Source: an uncultured Planctomycetia bacterium (GTDB taxonomy: Bacteria; Planctomycetota; Planctomycetia; CAXEIY01). From it: DNA of 64,000 nt. The stretch covers positions 174 to 64,173 of the forward strand of contig CAXEIY010000203.1 in assembly GCA_963996245.1 (NCBI GenBank). The letters are read 5' to 3'. The notes under the pieces were generated by a model. It was not told where the DNA came from. It worked only from the letters and a program-made list of their open reading frames with translations, and ran no database searches. This document shows, in pieces, positions 1,613-11,129 of the stretch (positions are counted from its first letter, which is position 1; each line of letters starts with the position of its first letter). A program made the translations under genes and the position numbers.

Positions 1613-1810
1613 ACGGATGGACTATACATCTTCTAAGAAACATTTCCACAAAGGAGCCTCGCTGCACTAACTATCTGTCATGCAGGGACATACCAATCCT
1701 TTCGTGTACAGTCCCGTGCCAGCAACGTACCCCTGGCCTGACTGTACTTCTTCCAAAACCCGCGAAGTGCTTTCGATCTGGTAACGATTATTCAATTCAG
1801 GAGACTTCTC

Positions 1811-1909
1811 GGGAGTGTTTGCTGGTCTGGTGACCGCCGCGGGCTTCAAACCCGTTGCGGGATTCGAAAACGAGTTCCGGGTGGGTTCGATTCCCATACA
1901 CTCCCGCCA
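1811..1909 (+). tRNA. selC: tRNA-Sec (selenocysteine), anticodon UCA
   Basis: Hand-folded structure:
- 8-bp acceptor stem, GGGAGTGT (1811-1818) paired with ACACTCCC (1898-1905).
- Discriminator G and encoded CCA (1906-1909).
- Anticodon loop CTTCAAA (1844-1850), giving anticodon TCA.
- 9-bp variable stem (1858-1866 / 1871-1879) closed by an AAAA loop.
- 5-bp T stem with loop TTCGATT (1881-1897).
The 8/5 acceptor/T geometry and long variable arm are the bacterial tRNA-Sec hallmarks. Confidence 0.9.
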
Positions 1910-1917
1910 TTACTTTA
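1896..1917 (+). repeat. Proximal copy of the putative att core (3' end of tRNA-Sec plus 8 nt)
   Basis: ATACACTCCCGCCATTACTTTA aligns with 10155-10176 (ATACACACCCCCTTTTACCTAA). I counted 16 of 22 identical positions, in the same orientation. Confidence 0.5.
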
Positions 1918-2009
1918 CGCGGCTCTTCGCATCGGGCCGCAAGTACCGGCTTTTCACGTCCCCTGACCGGAACCCGAGGGGGTCTCTGTGGTCCAAAAGG
2001 TAACTGGAT

Positions 2010-2472
2010 GCGACTCCCAGCGTGCACCTGCTGCGCCTCATTTTGCGCCACTTGTGCGCCGCATTTTGCGCCACCTGCAATGGCTCGTTTGAAGTGATCT
2101 TCGGTCACTTGAAGATAATGCTTCCTTGCCACCGGCGGACTGTTGCCAATCCACTTGCACACGACATGAGGCGCGAACTGTTCGGATAATTCCGTCTGGC
2201 GGCTTGACCGTAAATTTTGAAATATGCGTGGCCATGGATTGAGTCCAGCACGTTTCACAATCCGAACACATTGTGTACGTAAGTTTCCTCCAGGTTTGCG
2301 ATGACGGGTGATCACGTGTGGCGTACCCGATTCCGCTTCTTCGAAAACAGTCTCTAAGAAGGGTCGCACCGAACCCGTTGACAATTCCGTGCGTATAGAC
2401 AATAATCCTGCTTCTGGAATTGGTCGGGCCGGAAAGTTTCAGCATCAACTCGCCATGCGTTTTACCCGACAT
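2010..2472 (-). pseudogene. Tyrosine recombinase (phage-integrase family) remnant. Only the C-terminal catalytic part survives, and it is frameshifted.
   Basis: - ORF 1797..2402(-) carries ...NLRTQCVRIVKRAGLNPWPRIFQNLRSSRQTELSEQFAPHVVCKWIGNSPPVARKHYLQVTEDHF. This is a catalytic R...HxxxW/GN...Y box with the Tyr in KHY.
- The preceding segment (SGKTHGE..SRSRIIV) sits in a different frame, in ORF 2038..2472(-).
- The ~200 N-terminal residues of a full integrase, including the first catalytic Arg box, are absent.
- The open frame has no stop until it has run antisense through the tRNA. Coordinates are approximate. Confidence 0.7.
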
Positions 2473-3249
2473 CTATGCACCGTCGCCATCCTGGCACTCT
2501 ATGTCGCCCAAATCGTGGGTGGACGGTCAATGCATCTGTGGCAGTGCTCTGCGGGTAGTCGTTCATGCTGCTGCGACCACAGTCATCATCACCACTCAGA
2601 AAACGCGGGTGGCGAACAGCATGAGCGGGATTCAGATGGCGGTAATAGGAAGCACGACCCATCCACATGCCGCGTTGATCAAGCTGAAATCAGTCGGAAA
2701 GCAGAAGCCAACGCCATGAACGTCGCTAGTTGGGGCAAGGCTTCAGCTTGCCTGTCAACACTGTCACTGTTGCTCCTCGCTGGTTGTTCCGCTGAAGATC
2801 CACGGATTGTAGCGCTGCGGAACCGGTTGTTGTTGTTGGCGGAGCCCGCTGCCGCGACGACGATCGCGGAAGCCAAAGCCGCCGTGATCGAGAAGCCGGA
2901 CGTGTTGTTTGTCGCGCGCGTCGCCGCGGACGAGCACGAGGCGTTCGTTCCAGGGCAGACTTCCTTTCTGGTAACCGAGATTTTGCCTGACGAGCATGGA
3001 CATGGCGGCAAAGACCACACAGACAACTGTCCTTTCTGCAAACGCAAGGCCGCGGAAGGCCCGCGGGCGGCCGTTCAGTTTCTCGATGCGGCAGGCGAAA
3101 CGCTCGACATCGACGGCCGCAAGTTGTTCTGCATCAACCCCGGCGACACAGTCGTGATTCGCGGCACTGGCGAGCTGATGCCCGACTTAGACCTGTTCGT
3201 CGTCACAGCCGACGGCATCTATGTGCGGCAGTCCGAAGTTGGGCATTGA
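2455..3249 (+). CDS. His/Cys-rich membrane-anchored segment in frame with a lipoprotein-like domain. This is either one fusion protein or two products using ATG 2455 and ATG 2716.
   Basis: - ATG at 2455: MRFTRHLCTVAILALYVAQIVGG (hydrophobic helix), then HLWQCSAGSRSCCCDHSHHHHSENAGGEQHERD.
- No stop codon occurs before the second ATG at 2716.
- The ORF upstream of 2455 overlaps the integrase remnant and is probably not coding. Confidence 0.5.
   Translation: MRFTRHLCTVAILALYVAQIVGGRSMHLWQCSAGSRSCCCDHSHHHHSENAGGEQHERDSDGGNRKHDPSTCRVDQAEISRKAEANAMNVASWGKASACLSTLSLLLLAGCSAEDPRIVALRNRLLLLAEPAAATTIAEAKAAVIEKPDVLFVARVAADEHEAFVPGQTSFLVTEILPDEHGHGGKDHTDNCPFCKRKAAEGPRAAVQFLDAAGETLDIDGRKLFCINPGDTVVIRGTGELMPDLDLFVVTADGIYVRQSEVGH
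2716..3249 (+). CDS. Lipoprotein with a His-rich/CxxC putative metal site (alternative internal start of the ORF above)
   Basis: MNVASWGKASACLSTLSLLLLAGC carries a lipobox (LLAGC). The sequence DEHGHGGKDHTDNCPFCKRK combines a His cluster with CxxC. Stop TGA at 3247-3249. Confidence 0.55.
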   Translation: MNVASWGKASACLSTLSLLLLAGCSAEDPRIVALRNRLLLLAEPAAATTIAEAKAAVIEKPDVLFVARVAADEHEAFVPGQTSFLVTEILPDEHGHGGKDHTDNCPFCKRKAAEGPRAAVQFLDAAGETLDIDGRKLFCINPGDTVVIRGTGELMPDLDLFVVTADGIYVRQSEVGH

Positions 3250-3270
3250 GGACGAGGAGGAGACTATGAA

Positions 3271-4566
3271 ATGAGTAGGAAACGAGCCGAATTCATAGCG
3301 CGTTCTTTTCGACGCTTGGCGGCGATCGGCAACCACGATTTCTGTCCATGGGCGAATCGTTACGTGTATTGGCTGAAGCAGCCGATTGGCTGGTTGGTTG
3401 TGGCAGCAGCGGCCGCGGCGTTGACCGCGTTGTTCCTCGAGCCTCAGGCATGGATCATCGTGGGGTCGCTGGTTGCCGTGATGCTTATGGGCGTCGTGTG
3501 GCCATGGGTGGCGATGCGAGGCGCGTCGGCGGAAATCAAGTTCGATTGCCGCCGCTGCCGCGAGGGAGATCGAGTGCAAGTGCGACTGGTGATCCACAAC
3601 CGCTGGCCGTGGCCTTTGTGGGGATTGGCGGTCGAGAACGGTTTCTTCTTGGAAGCAGCGGAAGTGGGAAACCGCCCCGTGGTGGCGCTGGCTCGAGTTC
3701 CCGGTTGGAGCCATTCCGAGTTTCGATTCGAATTCCAGCCTGATGTGCGTGGCGTCTACCCGCATGTGGTGCCCGAATTGGCAACTGGGTTCCCGTTCGG
3801 CATTTGGCGTGCCGCGCGGAAGATTTTGGTAGGGCGCGAGCTACTGGTCTGGCCCCGGACTACGCCGCTCACCTCGATCCCTTCGCTCGGCGGCGACATC
3901 GCCGACGTCATTGGAATGCTGTTTGACCGTCCGGGGAACGAGGGAGACGTAATCGGTGTCCGCCCGTTTCGGCACGGCGATCGGCTGCGCAGCATCCACT
4001 GGGCTCAAACGGCACGGCGCGAGATGCTGATCGTGACTGAAAGACAAGCGGCTGCACGGCGGTTGGTTGTCGTCGCGGTCGATGTAGCGGCCTTTGCGAA
4101 TAGCGAATCGCCACGCGGCGGCTCGCGCGGACAACTTGAAATGGCAATCCGCGTGGCGGCCAGCATTGCGCAGGAGTTCCACGCTCACCACGCCGAGGTG
4201 CGGTTCGTCATCGGCGACGTTGATTTGTGTTTGTCGCCCGACTCCGCTGGCCTTCGTTGCTTACTAGACTCGCTGGCCCGATTTCAATTCGAGCAGGGAG
4301 CGGTACGACCGCCACGCAGCTTCGGCCGCAAGGACTTGGCGGTGGTGTTGACGACCAGCCAACACCAGTCGGAGTGGGAGAACGGGGCGGGAACAGGGCG
4401 ATTTCTTCGACTAGTGCTGATCGAGACACCCGCTTCGAGCAACGGGAATACAGCTTCACAACTAAGTAGGCGAAACGTCTGGATCGCGCTCGACGCCGAC
4501 TCGGACTGCTCGCTGCAGCTTCGACACCAATGGGAGCGAGTCTGCCATGACGACTCCGTGGCGTAA
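3271..4566 (+). CDS. DUF58 domain protein (MoxR-associated, vWA-like), with two N-terminal TM helices
   Basis: DUF58 signature RPFRHGDRLRSIHWAQTARREMLIVTERQ. The ATG at 3271 is preceded by gaggaggag. The 3' end overlaps the next gene by 20 nt. Confidence 0.85.
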   Translation: MSRKRAEFIARSFRRLAAIGNHDFCPWANRYVYWLKQPIGWLVVAAAAAALTALFLEPQAWIIVGSLVAVMLMGVVWPWVAMRGASAEIKFDCRRCREGDRVQVRLVIHNRWPWPLWGLAVENGFFLEAAEVGNRPVVALARVPGWSHSEFRFEFQPDVRGVYPHVVPELATGFPFGIWRAARKILVGRELLVWPRTTPLTSIPSLGGDIADVIGMLFDRPGNEGDVIGVRPFRHGDRLRSIHWAQTARREMLIVTERQAAARRLVVVAVDVAAFANSESPRGGSRGQLEMAIRVAASIAQEFHAHHAEVRFVIGDVDLCLSPDSAGLRCLLDSLARFQFEQGAVRPPRSFGRKDLAVVLTTSQHQSEWENGAGTGRFLRLVLIETPASSNGNTASQLSRRNVWIALDADSDCSLQLRHQWERVCHDDSVA

Positions 4567-7084
4567 GCTTCCAGCTTGCGAAACAAACGTAGACGGAACA
4601 GCCGGCAAGCAGGATGCTCGCCCCACCTCGAGGCCGAATGGCTCTCCGCGATTCGATACATTGCTGCTGGCTCTGCTGGCAGGAGCCACTTTGACGGTCG
4701 CCCGGGCAAACGCGGCTTGGAATCCGACCCCCATGGCGATTCGCGCGGTTTGCGAGTTGCTGGTGACCGTGGCGGGTTCGCTGATCTTGCGTCGACTGGG
4801 CCATACGCTTCCGCAGGTGAAATGCTTCGTGGCGATTGCTGTCAGTGCGGTCGTCGTGTTTCCGTTCGCGATTGAGTTGGCAATGCGGCAGTTCGCCGGT
4901 GGCAGCGAGCCGTTCGAGATGTTGCAGTTGACAGCTCTGCAGTTGTCGGCCGTTGTGCTGGCCGTGTTCTCCCATGTGCCGCGACTGTCCGGCACGGCGG
5001 TGTTGCTGAGCAGCTTCTCGTTGCTGTTCGCAACGACGATAGCAAGCACTCCCACGCCCCTAACGCGTATGTTGGCAGGCGTCTATGGGGCGTTGGGGCT
5101 ATGGTGGCTGATGGGAGCCTACTGGGATCGGCTGGCGGGAACGTTCGTGGCTTCAAGGGTCGAGCGGCGGATTCCGGTGCGGGTTTCGGTAATCTGCGGG
5201 ACGGCGATGGTGTTGCTGCTGCTGGCGGCCCTGATCGGCACGACCGGCGGCGCGGCGATCGCCTTACCGGGCTTCATGCCGACATCCGGCGGCACGCGGT
5301 GGCACGATCCGCACGCCCGCTCCGGCGTGGACGACGGCGACGCGATGGTTGCCGCGAAGGAAGAGGCGATGAGTTTCGGGCCAGTCGAGAGCGATCTGTT
5401 TCTGGATTCTGACATGCCATCGCTGTACGACACGTTCAATGGCATGTACGGCGAACCGCCTAAGCCAAATAAGAAACAAGAACGCGCCATCGCGCTGGCG
5501 CCCAACGACGTGCAGGAAAACGAGCAGCAGATCGCCACGACCGAACGGAGCGGCCGCGAGTTTTCAGCCGTGCGGCGGAAAGTCGAACGCAAGCGTCAGA
5601 CGATCGACGATCGCAAAGCGGCGGCGATGCTGTACGTAGTGGGCCCCGTCCCGCTGCACTTGGCGCTCGAACGGTTCGATACTTTCGATGGTCGCGTATG
5701 GACGCACTCCGGCGAGCGCGAAGAAGAACAATCTATCCGTTTGGAGAGACAGAACGGTAAACCGTGGGCGTACTTGCTAGGCACCGATTCGTCGTCGATC
5801 CATCGCGGCATTGAGTCGCACGCGGTGAAGATCATCAACCTGAAGACGAATCGCTACCCTTCACCGCCGCAGTTGACGGCCGTTCATATCGATAAGTTGG
5901 ACCAGCCTGACTTTTTCGGCTGGACCAACGACGGCGTCGCCTGCATGCCCGTCCGCGATCACATTCCGCAGTTGACCGTCCTGCATCTCCGATCCCAGGG
6001 CGTCAATCTGCAATCACTTCGCGAAGCTGACTTCACGGCACGATTTCCTGCGGTCTCGAGCGAGCGTCAGGGCCACGAGCGCACCGCGGTTGATATACAG
6101 GCGGAATTGGTCGCGCGACACCTGCGCGTGCCGGCCACGAGCGGAGCAGTCTCGCAGATTGCTGCCGCATGGACGTGCGACATACCGCGTGGCTGGCGGC
6201 AAGTGGAATCAGTTGTTGAGCGGTTGCGATCCGATTTCACCCTCGATTCGCGGGCCGAGACGCCCGAAGATTGCCGGGACGTTGTGTCGCATTTTCTGCA
6301 AGCCCGGCGAGGTCCCGACTACTTGTTTGCCACGACCGCCGCGATTCTCCTGCGCGATTTGGGGTATCCGACACGTCTTGTCACCGGGTTCTATGCGGAC
6401 AGGAACCGTTATGACCATCGCGCCGGCCAGACCACTGTCCTGGCTGAAGATGTCCACGTCTGGGTGGAAGTCAAGATTGATGGTCGCACGTGGGTCCCCG
6501 TCGAACCGTCGCCTGGATACGAGCCGCCGCGCGAATCGCTCACTTGGCGGCAACACGTAGCTCAAGTGTGGGATTCGGTCTGTCAGTGGTTTGGGAGTCA
6601 TCTTGCGGTGCTAGCGCTAGCCCTGGCGGTCGCCGTGACAGGTTGGTTCACACGCATCCATTGGCTCGATGGCACGTTAACATTGGCCTTCCGGATTGCT
6701 GGAAGAATTGACTCACGGCGGCGGGTTTTATGGACCATGCGACTGCTGGAGTATCGAGCTTGGCTGGCGGGACACCGGCGGCCAAAGTGCAAAACCCTCT
6801 CGCACTGGCACGGAGCATTGGCGGACAGCCTGCCCGAGGCGACCGCGATGTGTTTGCAGTCCGCTTTGCGATCAGCTGAATCACTCCTCTACTACTCCTG
6901 CAACTCGCCGGCAAGCGCTACGCCGGCCCACGAAGTTCTGGCGGCTTGCGACGTCGTCGAAAAACGGGTCGGAACGCGATGCTTTCGACACGCCTTCGAC
7001 GATGGCAATTGCAGAGGAGCCCCAAGGTATACCGCTCCGTTGCTCGGCCTGGCGTCAGGACAGAAAGACACTCACTGTGAATAA
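4547..7084 (+). CDS. Multi-TM transglutaminase-like protein (DUF3488/Transglut_core architecture) with a non-canonical catalytic triad
   Basis: - The N-terminal ~250 aa are strongly hydrophobic.
- The core reads RRGPDYLFATTAAILLRDLGYPTRLVTGFY...DVHVWVEVKIDGRTWVPVEPSPGY. This matches the G-x-C-x-x-FA...R..G.P.R.V.G...H.W.E....W...DP pattern, but with Asp and Glu at the Cys and Asp positions.
- Two further TM helices follow. Confidence 0.8.
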   Translation: MTTPWRKLPACETNVDGTAGKQDARPTSRPNGSPRFDTLLLALLAGATLTVARANAAWNPTPMAIRAVCELLVTVAGSLILRRLGHTLPQVKCFVAIAVSAVVVFPFAIELAMRQFAGGSEPFEMLQLTALQLSAVVLAVFSHVPRLSGTAVLLSSFSLLFATTIASTPTPLTRMLAGVYGALGLWWLMGAYWDRLAGTFVASRVERRIPVRVSVICGTAMVLLLLAALIGTTGGAAIALPGFMPTSGGTRWHDPHARSGVDDGDAMVAAKEEAMSFGPVESDLFLDSDMPSLYDTFNGMYGEPPKPNKKQERAIALAPNDVQENEQQIATTERSGREFSAVRRKVERKRQTIDDRKAAAMLYVVGPVPLHLALERFDTFDGRVWTHSGEREEEQSIRLERQNGKPWAYLLGTDSSSIHRGIESHAVKIINLKTNRYPSPPQLTAVHIDKLDQPDFFGWTNDGVACMPVRDHIPQLTVLHLRSQGVNLQSLREADFTARFPAVSSERQGHERTAVDIQAELVARHLRVPATSGAVSQIAAAWTCDIPRGWRQVESVVERLRSDFTLDSRAETPEDCRDVVSHFLQARRGPDYLFATTAAILLRDLGYPTRLVTGFYADRNRYDHRAGQTTVLAEDVHVWVEVKIDGRTWVPVEPSPGYEPPRESLTWRQHVAQVWDSVCQWFGSHLAVLALALAVAVTGWFTRIHWLDGTLTLAFRIAGRIDSRRRVLWTMRLLEYRAWLAGHRRPKCKTLSHWHGALADSLPEATAMCLQSALRSAESLLYYSCNSPASATPAHEVLAACDVVEKRVGTRCFRHAFDDGNCRGAPRYTAPLLGLASGQKDTHCE

Positions 7085-7094
7085 CATCAACGAC

Positions 7095-8048
7095 ATGATT
7101 GAAACTTCCTCTGAGACTCAGTGCCGCCACCAATCGACCATCGATGGTCTACGGTCGGCGCTAAGCCAAGCGCTCATCGGCAAGGACGACATTGTCGAAA
7201 GCGTCCTGGCCTGCTTGCTGGCTCGCGGGCACTTGTTGTTCGACGACTTGCCGGGACTGGGAAAGACGACGTTGGCCAAGGCTGTCGCCCACGCGGTCGG
7301 GGGCCATTTCGCGCGCGTCCAATGCACACCCGACTTGCTGCCGACAGACATCACCGGCTTCAACATGTTCGACCAGAAGACACACGAGTTCGAATTTCGT
7401 CGTGGTCCGGTGTTTTCGGATGTGCTGTTGGCGGACGAGATCAATCGCGCCACGCCGCGGACCCAAAGTGCTTTGTTCGAAGCGATGGCCGAACGACAGG
7501 TGACCATCGACAACCAAACGTATCCACTCAACCAGACTTTCTTTGTGATCGCGACACAGAACCCTGTCGAAAGCCACGGCGCTTACCCCCTGCCGGAAGC
7601 GCAGCTTGACCGGTTCGCCACGAAGTTGCGGATCGGCTACCCGGATCGCCGCAGCGAGGTCGATATGCTGGCAGCGAACATCGGGTCGGCCGATGGCGTG
7701 CGGACGAAGACGGAACCCGTGATCTGCCCGAGCCAATTGTGCCAGCTTCAGGAACACGTTGCCAAGGTCACGTTTACGGAACAAGTGCTCGAGTATCTGG
7801 TCGACTTGGGCCAAGCGACGCGGGAGCACAAAGAGGTCACGCTGGGACTCAGTCCGCGCGGGTTGATTACCTGGCAGCGGATTGCGCAAGCCCGCGCTCA
7901 CTTGCGAGGCCGTGACTTTGTCACGCCCGATGACATCCAGGACGTCGCTGGCCCGGTACTTGACGTTCGATTGGCCGGCGACTTCGACGCCGTGCCGCGG
8001 ATTGTCGAAGAAATCCTGGCCGCCGTCGAGGTACCCACGTTTCGCTGA
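7095..8048 (+). CDS. MoxR-family AAA+ ATPase
   Basis: IGKDDIVESVLACLLARGHLLFDDLPGLGKTTLAKAV (Walker A), VLLADEINRATPRTQSALFEAMAE (Walker B/sensor) and FVIATQNP. The ATG at 7095 lies 10 nt after the previous stop. The long upstream part of track ORF 6696..8048 overlaps the TGase gene and is not used. Confidence 0.9.
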   Translation: MIETSSETQCRHQSTIDGLRSALSQALIGKDDIVESVLACLLARGHLLFDDLPGLGKTTLAKAVAHAVGGHFARVQCTPDLLPTDITGFNMFDQKTHEFEFRRGPVFSDVLLADEINRATPRTQSALFEAMAERQVTIDNQTYPLNQTFFVIATQNPVESHGAYPLPEAQLDRFATKLRIGYPDRRSEVDMLAANIGSADGVRTKTEPVICPSQLCQLQEHVAKVTFTEQVLEYLVDLGQATREHKEVTLGLSPRGLITWQRIAQARAHLRGRDFVTPDDIQDVAGPVLDVRLAGDFDAVPRIVEEILAAVEVPTFR

Positions 8049-8094
8049 GTGAGTGCTTACACCGCGAGAGTTTACCTTTAGCAAAGATTTCAAT

Positions 8095-8583
8095 ATGAAC
8101 CGACAGCAACCAAAGATTGCGACCGTTGCAACGCGGCTTCTGCTGACGTGGCTCCTGATGGTGTTTGCCGGATGTCACGACGTCCAGACAGAAGAGACCG
8201 AGTATCATACGCCCGAACACATGCCAGCCGACTATCCAGCGGCCGTGGAGCAGTTGTTGGCGTTGCACGTCGAGATTGCCAACGGCGGTTCACGCGCGGG
8301 GGACGCCATCGACGTGTTTGCCGAAACCTATGACGTTGTGCGTTGGCTGCCAATGTTGGCCGCCGACAGCGATCTAGACGAAGAACCGTGGAATCGCGTC
8401 GACCGCGCCTCGCGCCGGCTGGAGGAAATCCTGAACGAAGTCCTTGCACGCAACGGCAGCGACCGGCGCGAGACGTATTTGCGATACGAGACGGAACTCG
8501 ACCAGCACCAGCGCGTGTTGGTCGAAATCAAACAGCAATTCCCAGCCGCCGCCAGCGCCATGCCAGCGGAGGAACCGAAATGA
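8095..8583 (+). CDS. Small helical lipoprotein, function unknown
   Basis: MNRQQPKIATVATRLLLTWLLMVFAGC carries a lipobox (VFAGC). A His/Glu-rich segment (TEYHTPEHMP) and predicted helical repeats follow. Tightly linked to its neighbours. Confidence 0.65.
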   Translation: MNRQQPKIATVATRLLLTWLLMVFAGCHDVQTEETEYHTPEHMPADYPAAVEQLLALHVEIANGGSRAGDAIDVFAETYDVVRWLPMLAADSDLDEEPWNRVDRASRRLEEILNEVLARNGSDRRETYLRYETELDQHQRVLVEIKQQFPAAASAMPAEEPK

Positions 8584-8593
8584 GGAGTCACCT

Positions 8594-10123
8594 ATGGACA
8601 GTCTGTTGTGGGGAGCTGTGCTCCGTTTTGCGCAGGCCCTTGTACAAGCAACGCCGACGATCCTGATTGGGTTAATCGTCGCGGGTGTCTTTCGTCAATT
8701 GTTGGGACATTCGGGAACGCGACGGTTGTTCGGCGACAACACATGGCGCTCACTGCCGCAGGCATGGGCGGTCGGTATGTTGCTGCCCGTCTGTTCGCTG
8801 GGAGTGATTCCCGTGTTGCGCGAAATGCGGCGCGCCGGGGTTTCCGGCGGCGCGATTCTGGCCTTCGGTTTGACGGCGCCGTTGTTCAACCCGATCTCGG
8901 TCCTGTACGGGCTGACGCTCGCCGACCCGATTGTGATAATCACGTTTTCGTTTTGTTCGCTGGTGATCGTGACGGTCGTGGGGATTGGCTGGGACATGCT
9001 GTTTCCGGGAACGGCGAACGCCGAGCCGGAACCGCCCGTGGTCGGATTCGGCGCAAAGCGGATGTTGTCAGTCACAGTGTTCAGTGCGCGGGAGTTGGCC
9101 GGGCCGAGCAGCCTGTACATCATCGCCGGCCTGCTGGGCGTGGCCATGCTTAGTCTGTTGCTACCCGCCGGCTACCTGGAATCGGCGGCAGAGCACAACG
9201 ACCCATTTGCCCCGTTGTTTATGTCCGCTGTGGCGATTCCGGCCTATGCCACGCCGATGACGGCGATCGTCCAATTGGCTTCGATGTTCCAGCACGGCAA
9301 CTCGGTGGGCGCAGCGTTTGCGCTGTTGGCTCTGGGTGCTGGCGCAAACCTGGGACTAGTCGTCTGGATGGCTCACAACTATGGTGCAAAACGAGCCGGT
9401 GTGTGGTTCGCGCTGTTGATCGTGGTCGTCGTGGGACTGTCCTACGGCGTGGATAAGCCGCTCTATCCGCACGGCGTGGAACCGGTGGGCCACACTCATG
9501 CTTTCGACATCTATTGTGCGCCCTTTCAGCCCGGGACGAGCAACGCGATGTTGACGGCTTGGCGCACCCTTTGGGAGAAAATCGCGCCGCACGAGATCTT
9601 TGCCTTGTTCGTATTAGGGCTGCTTATGGCCGCTGGCCTCGTGCTGTCTCGCTGGGATCGAGACGGTCGAGTCGAAAAATGGCTCCAGCAGCAACCGACC
9701 GCCAAACCTCGGTTTGATGTGGTTCTGCCCGGCCCCGTGCTCGGCGTTGTAGCCCTGATGGGTCTGATCGCTTTGAGCGTGTTCGGCTGCTACGTTTATT
9801 ACCCGGCTCCAGCCGAGATTTTCGAGGAGATGCGGATCGTCAACACGGAGGTGGTGGCCTCCGCTTCATCCCAGGACTGGGATACCGCCCTGTACTGGAT
9901 TCCCATCTACGACGACTGGACTCGCAAGCTGCAAGTCAGCATGTTCTTGCGCGGGGAAGAGCTGACTCCCTACCGCCGCGCCAAAGCGACAATCCTGCGT
10001 GACAAGTTGGAACTGCTCGAACACGAAGTCGAGGATCAGGAAGTCAAAGAATCTCGAGAACTCGGAATGGCCGTCACCCGAGCCTACAGTCGCATGCGAG
10101 CCGCCTATACGATGGAAAACTGA
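8594..10123 (+). CDS. ArsP/DUF318-type predicted permease with an additional C-terminal TM helix and a ~130-aa helical domain
   Basis: - N-terminal motif FAQALVQATPTILIGLIVAGVF...LLPVCSLGVIPVLREM is typical of the 'predicted permease' family (P-x-CS-x-G-x-x-P).
- Multiple TM segments.
- The ATG at 8594 is preceded by gaggag.
- The C-terminal part (VLPGPVLGVVALMGLIALSVFGCYVYY plus the EIFEEMRIVN...LELLEHEVEDQ helical region) lies beyond the usual permease length. Confidence 0.8.
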   Translation: MDSLLWGAVLRFAQALVQATPTILIGLIVAGVFRQLLGHSGTRRLFGDNTWRSLPQAWAVGMLLPVCSLGVIPVLREMRRAGVSGGAILAFGLTAPLFNPISVLYGLTLADPIVIITFSFCSLVIVTVVGIGWDMLFPGTANAEPEPPVVGFGAKRMLSVTVFSARELAGPSSLYIIAGLLGVAMLSLLLPAGYLESAAEHNDPFAPLFMSAVAIPAYATPMTAIVQLASMFQHGNSVGAAFALLALGAGANLGLVVWMAHNYGAKRAGVWFALLIVVVVGLSYGVDKPLYPHGVEPVGHTHAFDIYCAPFQPGTSNAMLTAWRTLWEKIAPHEIFALFVLGLLMAAGLVLSRWDRDGRVEKWLQQQPTAKPRFDVVLPGPVLGVVALMGLIALSVFGCYVYYPAPAEIFEEMRIVNTEVVASASSQDWDTALYWIPIYDDWTRKLQVSMFLRGEELTPYRRAKATILRDKLELLEHEVEDQEVKESRELGMAVTRAYSRMRAAYTMEN

Positions 10124-10154
10124 TCAGATATGGCTACTCTAACTCAGAAGGTGG

Positions 10155-10176
10155 ATACACACCCCCTTTTACCTAA
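10155..10176 (+). repeat. Distal degenerate copy of the tRNA-Sec 3' end (putative displaced att remnant)
   Basis: It lies in the short non-coding gap between the last GC-rich gene (stop at 10123) and the first normal-composition gene (stop at 10183). 16 of 22 positions match 1896-1917. Confidence 0.5.
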
Positions 10177-10182
10177 TAACCG

Positions 10183-10989
10183 CTACGACGCACCTTGCAG
10201 GTGCGCCTGAATCGCCTGCTGGAGAAGTCGAATCGTTGGAGAACCACGAAAGGGAACGTCCAACCAAAGAATATCACCCTTTGAGCTGACCAGATACAGC
10301 CTCGGTACCGTTTCCGTTGCAAACTGAGAAAAATAAGAACCCTCTTCGTCCAGAAGTACCGGAAAATCCAGTTCCAGGCCACTAATGATCTCCCGCACCT
10401 TCTCAATCGGCTGTCCCCGGTTGATGGCCACGACCTGTACCTTTTCCCATTCCGAATGGACGACCTGTTGTTGCAGTGACTTAATCGCAAAAGATCCGTA
10501 CGGCGTACCTGAATCCCAGAAGAGAATAACCATCGCTGAGGAAGCAGCGCGTAAGGCATCAATGCTCTGATGCATTCCATCAAGATCCAACAACTCGGCA
10601 GACGGAATCATATCACCCGTCGTCAGTAACGTGCTCTTGGCATAGTTTCCACTTCCCAAGTCGACGACCGGCATGCTGACCGATTCTCCGGCTTCCTGAT
10701 CGGACACTTCTTCCGTAGTTTCCGATCCCGAAACCACTTCGTCAACCGGCGTTTGCTGCTCTGGTTCCACAGACTGTGGCAGGACTGGTTCTTGCGGTAT
10801 GTCCGGACTGCTGAGCTCCTCTGAGACAACAGGTTGATCCGGTACCACCTCGATTGACGGCGATGGTAATAATGGTTCGGAAACCACTTTCTCTTCGGGA
10901 ACCGGGGAAGGATCGCTACCGGCCTCTTGATCACTGCAACCAGAACTCCACACGATACCGAAGACTGAAAGACACCAGATCCATCTCAT
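10183..10989 (-). CDS. Lipoprotein with a Pro/Glu/Val-rich linker and a thioredoxin-fold (TlpA/ResA-like) domain lacking the CXXC cysteines
   Basis: MRWIWCLSVFGIVWSSGC carries a lipobox. The fold match is AMVILFWDSGTPYGSFAIKSL...VQVVAINRGQPIEKVREI...DFPVLLDEEG...VPRLYLVSSKGDILW. At the position of FW-x-x-WCxxC it reads FWDSGTPYG. The ATG at 10989 has a ggagg RBS. Confidence 0.75.
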   Translation of the reverse strand: MRWIWCLSVFGIVWSSGCSDQEAGSDPSPVPEEKVVSEPLLPSPSIEVVPDQPVVSEELSSPDIPQEPVLPQSVEPEQQTPVDEVVSGSETTEEVSDQEAGESVSMPVVDLGSGNYAKSTLLTTGDMIPSAELLDLDGMHQSIDALRAASSAMVILFWDSGTPYGSFAIKSLQQQVVHSEWEKVQVVAINRGQPIEKVREIISGLELDFPVLLDEEGSYFSQFATETVPRLYLVSSKGDILWLDVPFRGSPTIRLLQQAIQAHLQGAS

Positions 10990-11129
10990 CACTTTCCTCC
11001 TGAAACTACCAAAGGTCCCCGACAATTTTATCTCGACAGGGAAGCTGCCACAGATCTTTTCCTCCACATAAAACCAACGCTGGTACTGTGACTTTCGCAC
11101 CGGAGACTGTCAACGGTAAAACAAGTCGT

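Follow-up and report, generated by a model that had tools for sequence, protein, structure and literature searches.

Here, we have analysed a 64,000-nucleotide stretch of DNA from an uncultured Planctomycetia bacterium (contig CAXEIY010000203.1; hereafter the window, to whose positions the coordinates of its features refer) and focused on a module of genes at positions 2455-10123, all on the plus strand. Comparison with related loci suggests that the module is probably a copy of a conserved planctomycete operon that traffics a transition metal under the control of a leader open reading frame (ORF), with zinc as the most likely metal and copper as the main alternative. Apart from the leader, the operon encodes a DUF58 protein, a transglutaminase-like (TGase-like) membrane protein, a MoxR ATPase, a lipoprotein termed lipoB and an extended ArsP-family permease. 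The copy in the window was acquired horizontally, and its leader has been truncated by a deletion.

The module opens with a chimeric ORF (2455-3249) that contains an internal lipoprotein start at 2716. It continues with the genes for DUF58 (3271-4566, after a 21-nt spacer), the TGase-like protein (4547-7084, overlapping the DUF58 gene by 20 nt), MoxR (7095-8048, after 10 nt), lipoB (8095-8583, after 46 nt) and the permease of 509 amino acids (8594-10123, after 10 nt), which is the last gene of the module. These six co-directional ORFs and their spacers were recovered exactly as they had been described in an initial annotation, and the four protein families named there (AAA_3, DUF58, Transglut_core and ArsP_1) were all confirmed by Pfam.

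The order of the core genes is conserved far beyond chance. In a scan of one genome per species, 359 stretches were found to encode a relative of the permease, and 80 loci were fetched and searched by tblastn with the window proteins. The order DUF58, TGase-like, MoxR, permease is kept in 51 of the 55 loci that have at least 6.5 kb upstream, and it spans Pirellulales, Planctomycetales and Isosphaerales. MoxR is found directly 5' of the permease in 69 of 70 loci, and lipoB was detected by tblastn in 71 of 77 loci, directly 5' of the permease. The same arrangement is present in two cultured species of different orders, Lignipirellula cremea and Maioricimonas rarisocia, where DUF58, Transglut_core, MoxR and an unannotated protein of ~160-170 amino acids precede the permease. 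The flanks outside the module are not conserved. Since the order recurs well outside this genome, the adjacency is not a peculiarity of the window and the five genes form a self-contained unit. The initial annotation had proposed a module of seven genes; the recurring association of MoxR, DUF58 and the TGase-like protein with the permease stands, while the conserved unit consists of five genes plus a leader ORF.

Some of the surveyed loci deserve a remark of their own. At locus L003 (5769-8523), from a metagenome-assembled genome (MAG) whose permease is 82% identical to that of the window, ZnuA and an ABC-3 permease stand in place of DUF58 and the TGase-like protein, directly 5' of MoxR, lipoB and the permease, and a COG0523 GTPase and a Fur-family gene are nearby. 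Loci L036 and L037 come from the two ends of the same "complete" MAG chromosome (CP051247, 9304-30827 and 6047612-6069135 of 6090382) and gave equal tblastn identities and near-identical coordinates for every module gene; they are probably a redundant terminal assembly overlap and not a true duplication. Locus L054, on a contig labelled Candidatus Kuenenia stuttgartiensis, has one downstream neighbour, an amidohydrolase-family gene of a single ORF cluster, in common with L052, L053, L055 and L080 (Planctomycetaceae/Planctomycetales), and is probably mis-binned.

In many loci, an ORF of 110-220 amino acids lies 5' of DUF58. Its product has a transmembrane (TM) segment at the N-terminus, is rich in His and Cys in the middle, and carries the motifs HDxSxCxxC and, at the C-terminus, SR(A/G)PP. 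A hidden Markov model (HMM) built from the relatives' ORFs places this family co-directionally within ~3 kb 5' of DUF58 in about 38 loci. Of the 49 complete leaders, 30 have a DUF58 gene no more than 1.2 kb downstream, and the gaps between the two are mostly 100-600 bp. In all 49, the R(A/G)PP arrest motif stands close to the stop (1-8 residues before it), and the spacing from CxxC to this motif is 43 residues in 34 of them and 44-47 residues in another 12. The His/Cys-rich middle is highly variable in both length and sequence. Matches of the leaders to the Pfam family DUF2946 (PF11162) are weak but consistent, with E-values from 2e-4 upward, and end at the last position of the profile.

This architecture resembles that of two regulatory leaders from Proteobacteria. 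CruR of Bordetella pertussis (Bp2923) is the first gene of its operon, is followed by a long intergenic region, and has an export signal, a CXXC motif and a RAPP motif that follows 45 residues later, three residues short of the C-terminus; when the nascent chain senses copper, ribosome arrest is relieved and Rho termination can occur (PMC9426467). CutF of Rhodobacter capsulatus is a copper-responsive upstream regulatory ORF of the DUF2946 family (PMC9973294; bioRxiv 10.1101/2025.02.05.636593). The planctomycete leaders share with them the export anchor, the CxxC, the R(A/G)PP motif 1-8 residues before the stop, the first position in the operon and the gap of 100-600 bp, with a CxxC-RAPP spacing of 43 residues as against 45 in CruR. 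However, they are much richer in His and Cys, their DUF2946 scores stay under the gathering cut-off, and they head operons for DUF58, TGase-like, MoxR, lipoprotein and permease, whereas CruR and CutF head genes for a TonB receptor/PepSY or a multicopper oxidase. The description of CruR mentions 'a few' homologues in Planctomycetes, and no partners of the MoxR, DUF58, transglutaminase or permease type (PMC9426467). A C>G skew that peaks in the final ~75 nt of the leader ORF was considered as a possible Rho-utilization (rut) site; because Ala/Pro-rich codons could explain the skew, it was not used as evidence.

Leaders of this kind are also found in front of other genes. Seven of the 49 complete leaders with CxxC...R[AG]PP head DUF1559 genes (N_methyl plus SBP_bac_10), as at L167, where a leader at 6426-6803 on the minus strand is followed by a DUF1559 gene at 5411-6292 on the same strand, and likewise at L048, L056, L062, L029 and L025. 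In several loci, a DUF1559 gene stands between leader and DUF58, sometimes together with a small His-tailed lipoprotein. There are hints that some members of the huge planctomycete DUF1559 family are metal-regulated.

In the window, the His/Cys-rich TM peptide at the head of the module (2455-2715, plus strand) is, as judged from its sequence, a remnant of such a DUF2946-type (CruR/CutF-type) regulatory leader ORF. It matches the leader HMM with an E-value of 1e-43. It stands behind a conserved promoter-like site, with no other ORF in between, and its reading frame continues into the gene for a second lipoprotein, lipoA. It keeps the N-terminal TM segment (hydrophobic residues 3-21) that is common to all leader relatives listed, the His/Cys-rich stretch and the first Cys of CxxC. 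Its sequence then reads HDPSTCRVDQ as against HDxSxCxxCxxL in the relatives, so that the second Cys is gone, and the CxxC/RAPP pair that is present in 49 relatives was absent from the window ORF in a motif search. In this it differs from CruR and CutF as well. Alignment to loci L004 and L005 places the deletion junction after HDPSTC-RV, and ~10 codons from the 3' end of a His-rich lipoprotein gene follow, in frame into lipoA. The closest full arrangement, at L005, consists of leader, ZigA-type GTPase, His-rich helical lipoprotein, lipoA, DUF58 and the rest of the operon. A single deletion has therefore removed the second Cys, the RAPP motif, the ZigA GTPase and most of the His-rich lipoprotein. 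The in-frame join of TM peptide and lipoprotein, noted in the initial annotation, is a deletion chimera and not a designed fusion, as shown by these alignments and by the missing CxxC/RAPP. As the sensing half of the leader is deleted, leader-based control has presumably been lost in the window. A second, independent decay of the accessory region is seen at L004 (4256-4471), where a ZigA-like gene just 5' of DUF58 is cut to its first ~71 codons.

The permease matches ArsP_1 with 88.3 bits (cut-off 32.3; E 6.8e-25) over residues 11-283 of 509. It has 1844 relatives in the database, with full-length coverage among the matches listed, and all relatives that bear a taxon name belong to Planctomycetota. 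Hydropathy predicts about 10 TM helices, followed by a C-terminal cytoplasmic helical domain of ~115 amino acids. This domain occurs almost only in permeases of ~505-545 amino acids, in 194 clusters among 1.84e9 representatives; that the permease is an extended member of the ArsP/DUF318 type, as first annotated, thus holds. The motifs LLPVCSLGVIP, HGNSVGAAF, GHTHAFDxYCxP and GCYxYYP are invariant, and with them the residues C67, H234, H300, H302, D305, C308 and C399. The nearest named families in NCBIfam are SO_0444 and SaoE, and the scores (75.5 against a cut-off of 300, E 4e-21; and 66.7 against 325, E 2e-18) are far below those required for an equivalog. Like ArsP, SO_0444 and SaoE (Pfam ArsP_1, DUF318, UPF0718), the permease has the ArsP_1 core and keeps the Cys of the conserved xPxCSxG helix. 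Unlike them, it has two extra TM helices, the invariant GHTHAFDxYC loop and the C-terminal domain. Moreover, the vicinal-cysteine CSC motif described for the family (bioRxiv 10.1101/2022.07.06.499078) reads CSL here, and VCSLG is invariant in 12 diverse members.

The MoxR protein has an AAA_3 domain (E 4.8e-61), an AAA_lid_2 domain (E 1.7e-18) and intact Walker A (GLPGLGKTT) and Walker B (LLADEINR) motifs; with these domains and motifs and a DUF58 partner in the operon, it falls within the MoxR AAA+ ATPases (MRP subfamily). The DUF58 protein scores 31.1 bits in Pfam (cut-off 23.4) over profile positions 2-82 of 216, and its hydropathy suggests an N-terminal hairpin of two TM helices and a large cytoplasmic VWA-like domain. 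It lacks the DxSxS metal ion-dependent adhesion site (MIDAS) motif: D271 alone is conserved (51 of 55), and the following positions are variable and not Ser.

The TGase-like protein matches Transglut_core (E 9.5e-18) and, in a phmmer search, the structure of TgpA (6g49), and has seven hydrophobic segments flanking a loop of 454 amino acids. The description of this protein as a multi-TM transglutaminase-like protein is right as to fold and TM segments, but the catalytic Cys is missing. The segment SGFCAHYA of 6g49 aligns to RGPDYLFA, and Asp591-His637-Glu653 stand in place of Cys-His-Asp. Among 59 homologues, the Asp is found in 55 (and Cys in none), the His in all 59 and the Glu in 56. These substitutions indicate that the protein either serves as a TgpA-like scaffold in the membrane or catalyses some other chemistry, and that it is not a canonical transglutaminase.

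Trios of these three families are known. MoxR (PA2875), DUF58 (PA2874) and TgpA (PA2873) of Pseudomonas aeruginosa are co-transcribed, as are the same families in the PFNA cluster of Bifidobacterium (PMC3507681 for the trio). Like TgpA, the TGase-fold protein of the module spans the inner membrane several times and has a large domain in a loop. The planctomycete trio differs in its gene order (DUF58, TGase-like, MoxR), in its Asp-His-Glu in place of the Cys-His-Asp triad of TgpA, and in its strict linkage to a lipoprotein and a permease, often with a metal-sensing leader, which is not reported for the TgpA and PFNA sets in the literature we searched.

Of the two lipoproteins, lipoB is the one that belongs to the core. 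It carries the lipobox FAGC and is modelled by AlphaFold2 (AF2) as a lipid-anchored four-helix bundle (predicted local distance difference test, pLDDT, 81), and its tether, EEAEHHTPxH(M/K)P, is conserved in the alignment. Similarity to the lipoprotein of L005, which is helical and His-rich, was not detectable. At L167 (14191-14841) and L014 (2449-3066), its position is taken by an unrelated, strongly His-rich lipoprotein that looks rich in beta-structure, so the periplasmic partner seems to be exchangeable. LipoA (2716-3249, plus strand; lipobox LLAGC), which the initial annotation had counted as a member of the module, is accessory and stands next to the core in few loci; in relatives it comes after MerC and a His-rich lipoprotein, behind a leader of its own. 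The 49 lipoA homologues in the database are all stand-alone proteins of 175-200 amino acids, and the fused form of 264 amino acids is confined to the population of the window. The AF2 model of lipoA (pLDDT 86.6) gives Foldseek matches to the OB-fold (probability ~1.0, E 5e-4), with the invariant residues C105, P106, F107 and C108 on a flexible, His-rich CPFC loop. Neither lipoprotein has a family in Pfam or NCBIfam.

A link of the operon to metals is supported by its recurrent neighbours. Of 82 loci, 20 have recognisable metal genes no more than 10 kb away, and these often lie inside the operon. COG0523 GTPases occur in eight loci; of the seven that were scanned, three score above the ZigA equivalog cut-off of 600 (L001, 610.8; L005, 610.9; L051, 605.7) and three score 564-597, and ZigA lies inside the operon in L001 and L005. 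Genes for Fur-family regulators are found in six loci; their PDB matches are mixed and weak (PerR, Zur and Fur) and do not allow an assignment to Zur. ZnuA and ABC-3 occur at L003, a ZIP transporter in two loci, MerC in four, and His-rich lipoproteins of at least two further types in four or more. A Csp1-like, Cys-rich four-helix protein exported by the twin-arginine pathway (TIGR04401, E 3e-12) is found in six loci, in several of them directly 5' of DUF58. The recurrent neighbours in the flanks include no ars genes, no P1B-type ATPase, cation diffusion facilitator (CDF) or resistance-nodulation-division (RND) efflux genes, and no genes for CopA, CopZ, CueR, multicopper oxidase, PCuAC or Sco. 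The proposal of metal or metalloid handling is supported for metals, through the ZigA, Fur-family, ZnuABC, ZIP, MerC, Csp1-like and His-rich lipoprotein genes, and not for metalloids. In several lineages, the module contains or adjoins genes for ZigA-equivalog GTPases, ZnuA/ABC-3, ZIP and the Fur family, and in this the operon resembles Zur-type zinc-starvation sets. It differs from these in that no Zur box was identified and that most loci have a leader ORF instead of a nearby regulator; in the window, none of these zinc genes is left.

Taken together, we propose that the nascent leader peptide, with its export anchor, His/Cys-rich CxxC sensor and R(A/G)PP arrest motif 43 residues on, would couple the metal status of the cell to expression of the downstream genes. 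The extended permease, with its invariant Cys, His and Asp motifs, would be the presumed translocation path, and lipoB, lipid-anchored in the periplasm with a His-rich tether, could be the partner that hands the metal over. MoxR, the VWA-like DUF58 protein and the seemingly inactive TgpA-like scaffold may form a membrane-anchored AAA+ set that assembles, metallates or gates the transporter or a client protein. Between leader and core, optional genes are inserted (ZigA, MerC, His-rich lipoproteins, lipoA, Csp1-like and DUF1559 proteins). The neighbours are of the kind that goes with import and metal scarcity, which favours acquisition or allocation of the metal, and zinc is the most likely metal in the Pirellulaceae donor clade because ZigA sits in the operon there.

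The role suggested for the AAA+ set draws on strict synteny and on analogy with MoxR/VWA chaperones of metal centres. Such pairs include CoxD/CoxE, NorQ/NorD and the AAA+/VWA subunits of Mg- and Co-chelatases. The module likewise has a MoxR protein and a VWA-like partner in a metal-related context, but its DUF58 protein lacks the DxSxS MIDAS, it encodes no client metalloenzyme, and its partners are a permease and lipoproteins. A bolder version would make MoxR, DUF58 and the inactive TgpA-like protein an ATP-driven machine that loads or gates the permease and lipoprotein and is switched by the arrest peptide. This would be an unrecognised AAA+-assisted metal system, and the MoxR/DUF58/TgpA trios of other bacteria would be metal-trafficking devices as well. 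We offer this version tentatively and consider it a long way from probable.

Several observations weigh against our favoured interpretation. Every function proposed here, from the metal and the direction in which it is transported to what the AAA+ trio does and how the operon is regulated, is drawn from gene context and motifs, and it is strict synteny that links the trio to the permease. Just about a quarter of the loci (20 of 82) are flanked by recognisable metal genes, and the gene found most often in the flanks, DUF1559 (14 of the 132 ORFs scanned upstream and 14 of the 130 scanned downstream), has no known function. The best DUF2946 score of a leader, 22.6 bits, is below the gathering cut-off of 23.7, and the others have E-values of 1e-3 to 0.3. 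No conserved RNA structure between leader and DUF58 was found by RNAalifold in six Pirellula loci. The AF2 model of lipoB is a generic four-helix bundle that has no match in the PDB at E <= 0.001. The named relatives of the permease (ArsP, SO_0444 and SaoE) are efflux systems, and the CSC motif of the family reads CSL in the module. Finally, the metal is ambiguous, as ZigA, ZnuABC, ZIP and Fur-family genes point to zinc, and the two characterised DUF2946 leaders and the Csp1-like proteins point to copper.

This ambiguity leads to the strongest competing explanation, a copper-specific system in which the leader would sense copper by its CxxC as CruR of Bordetella does, and in which the permease, the lipoproteins and the AAA+ set would serve to import or allocate this metal. 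The two DUF2946 leaders that have been studied by experiment both respond to copper, and fitness data tie DUF2946 to copper. Csp1-like proteins stand directly 5' of DUF58 in several loci, and MerC and the CPFC loop of lipoA favour a thiophilic metal. The MoxR/VWA pair CoxD/CoxE, which takes part in copper insertion into CO dehydrogenase, is a further point for copper. However, the clade closest to the island has ZigA, a zinc chaperone equivalog, in the operon; the ZnuABC, ZIP and Fur-family neighbours are of zinc type; the leaders are unusually rich in His; and none of the usual copper genes listed above recurs among the neighbours. DUF2946 proteins head Zn/Cd operons as well, namely that of the efflux system with CzcI (PMC9973294) and Caulobacter CC2720-czrCBA. 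We therefore regard restriction to copper as rather unlikely. The czc and czr examples, together with the induction of detoxification genes by CutF-type leaders and the kinship of the permease to the efflux transporters SO_0444 and SaoE, could instead be taken to mean that the permease exports excess Cu, Zn or Cd like SO_0444/ArsP and that a CutF-like leader switches it on at high metal. This is an unlikely reading as well: the SO_0444 and SaoE scores are far under their equivalog cut-offs, the CSC motif is not conserved, and the recurrent neighbours (ZigA, ZnuABC, ZIP, MerC, Fur family) belong to scarcity or import, with no P1B-ATPase, CDF or RND among them. Moreover, the CXXC, the RAPP, their spacing of about 45 residues and the long intergenic region match those of CruR, by which an uptake operon is repressed in the presence of metal.

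In an explanation without metals, the leader might monitor protein export or membrane insertion like SecM, with MoxR, DUF58, the TgpA-like protein and the permease serving envelope biogenesis. Arrest motifs of the RAGP/RAPP type are classically those of secretion monitors, the essential TgpA of P. aeruginosa has been proposed to have its target in the cell envelope, and most loci have no recognisable metal gene nearby. The leader itself, with a CxxC at strict spacing and a segment rich in His and Cys, the invariant Cys/His motifs of the permease, the His-rich lipoprotein tethers and the insertion of metal genes inside the operon in several lineages make this very improbable. A small Cys/His-rich ORF beside a papain/TGase-fold protein and a transporter might also bring to mind a secreted peptide metallophore, whose precursor would be processed by the TGase-fold protein and exported by the permease. 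We find this scarcely credible, as the TGase-fold domain has no nucleophile, the middle of the small protein varies highly in length and sequence, and its TM anchor, fixed CxxC-RAPP geometry and long intergenic gap are typical of regulatory leaders. A leader-controlled operon for the trafficking of a transition metal remains our preferred reading.

In the window, a candidate sigma-70-like promoter for the operon, TTGACA-17-AATAAT, matches at 11 of 12 positions and lies at 2378-2406 on the plus strand. The -35/-10 blocks CCGAACCCRTTGAC ... ATAATC are conserved 5' of the leader ORFs in L004 and L005. This conserved block (2360-2410 in the window, ~3390-3440 in L004 and ~1860-1905 in L005) may hold an operator besides the promoter. 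A terminator scan gave no convincing intrinsic terminator within the operon. The good ribosome-binding sites ascribed to several genes reduce to two of the six, with clear Shine-Dalgarno sequences at DUF58 (GGAGGAG) and the permease (GAGGAG).

The module is carried by a GC-rich island at 2360-10130, the sole stretch of the window that deviates in GC content (58-62%, ~60%, compared with 47-51%, ~48%, for the rest), and homology to the Pirellulaceae loci L004 and L005 starts near 2360. The same island was found in the same context in at least three independent metagenome samples; ERZ17294090 and DRR683878 are examples of samples that carry it. Its permease shares 82-87% identity with the permeases of Pirellulaceae-type MAGs and 48-56% with those from loci that bear the labels Planctomycetaceae, Schlesneria or Fuerstiella; the donor-like loci have a GC content of 60-62%, like the island, as against 48% in the host. 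The aspartyl-tRNA synthetase (AspRS) of the host is at most 64% identical to that of any species-level genome, with its best matches in Planctomycetaceae. The module was not found beside AspRS in any of 80 loci taken from other genomes, among them those of the closest relatives of the host, and no second or native copy of any module gene was found elsewhere in the window or next to AspRS in the host's relatives. The module has moved horizontally: its donor was Pirellulaceae-like, and the host, which took it up beside tRNA-Sec, is Planctomycetaceae-like. Its transfer as one unit, as initially proposed, is borne out by the GC contrast, the permease identity and the affinity of AspRS.

The left neighbour of the island is the gene for tRNA-Sec (1811-1909, plus strand; anticodon TCA by ARAGORN; Rfam RF01852, 76.1 bits over 1811-1905), and the island shows the deviating composition and the tRNA adjacency of tRNA-associated islands; tRNA-Sec is an unusual tRNA neighbour for an island. 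A minus-strand ORF at 1797-2402 (entered as a feature at 1910-2402) might be a decayed C-terminal fragment of a tyrosine recombinase, as an R...GxS...KHY-like C-terminal pattern was recognised by eye. It has no recombinase match in Pfam, NCBIfam or PHROGs, so an "integrase remnant" remains a guess. No att-like or flanking direct repeats were found in a direct-repeat search across 1700-10400. On the right, the island is followed by a gene on the minus strand (10183-11100) for an AhpC/TSA-Redoxin-domain protein with a long N-terminal region rich in Pro, Glu and Ser. AhpC_TSA genes are among the listed partners of DUF2946 operons in Proteobacteria (PMC9426467); the adjacency here is probably coincidental, because the gene is host DNA and convergent.

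The single parts of the operon, namely the DUF2946 leader, the MoxR/DUF58/TgpA-like trio and the ArsP_1 permease, are of known kinds. We found no description of a fixed leader/trio/lipoprotein/permease operon across Planctomycetota in the literature searched, and no mention there of the Asp variant of the TGase fold, the family-specific extension of the permease, or the placing of the whole set under an arrest-peptide leader.

The extended permease family has no characterised member. Arrest-peptide metal sensing, hitherto studied mainly in Proteobacteria, would be extended by the leaders described here to a large planctomycete gene set, and the window offers a natural experiment, in which a transferred copy of the module has its leader deleted. 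MoxR/DUF58/transglutaminase-like trios are widespread and of unknown function, and that of P. aeruginosa contains the essential tgpA. In most planctomycete lineages the trio is under a leader of the CruR/CutF type, and genes for a zinc chaperone, a zinc importer or copper storage have been inserted. With its Asp in place of the catalytic Cys and its tie to a permease and a lipoprotein, this version of the trio provides a concrete hypothesis for such trios in general, namely metal trafficking. If the reading of MoxR, DUF58 and the TgpA-like protein as an AAA+ machine that loads or gates the permease were true, the essential trio of P. aeruginosa would be a metal-trafficking device as well.

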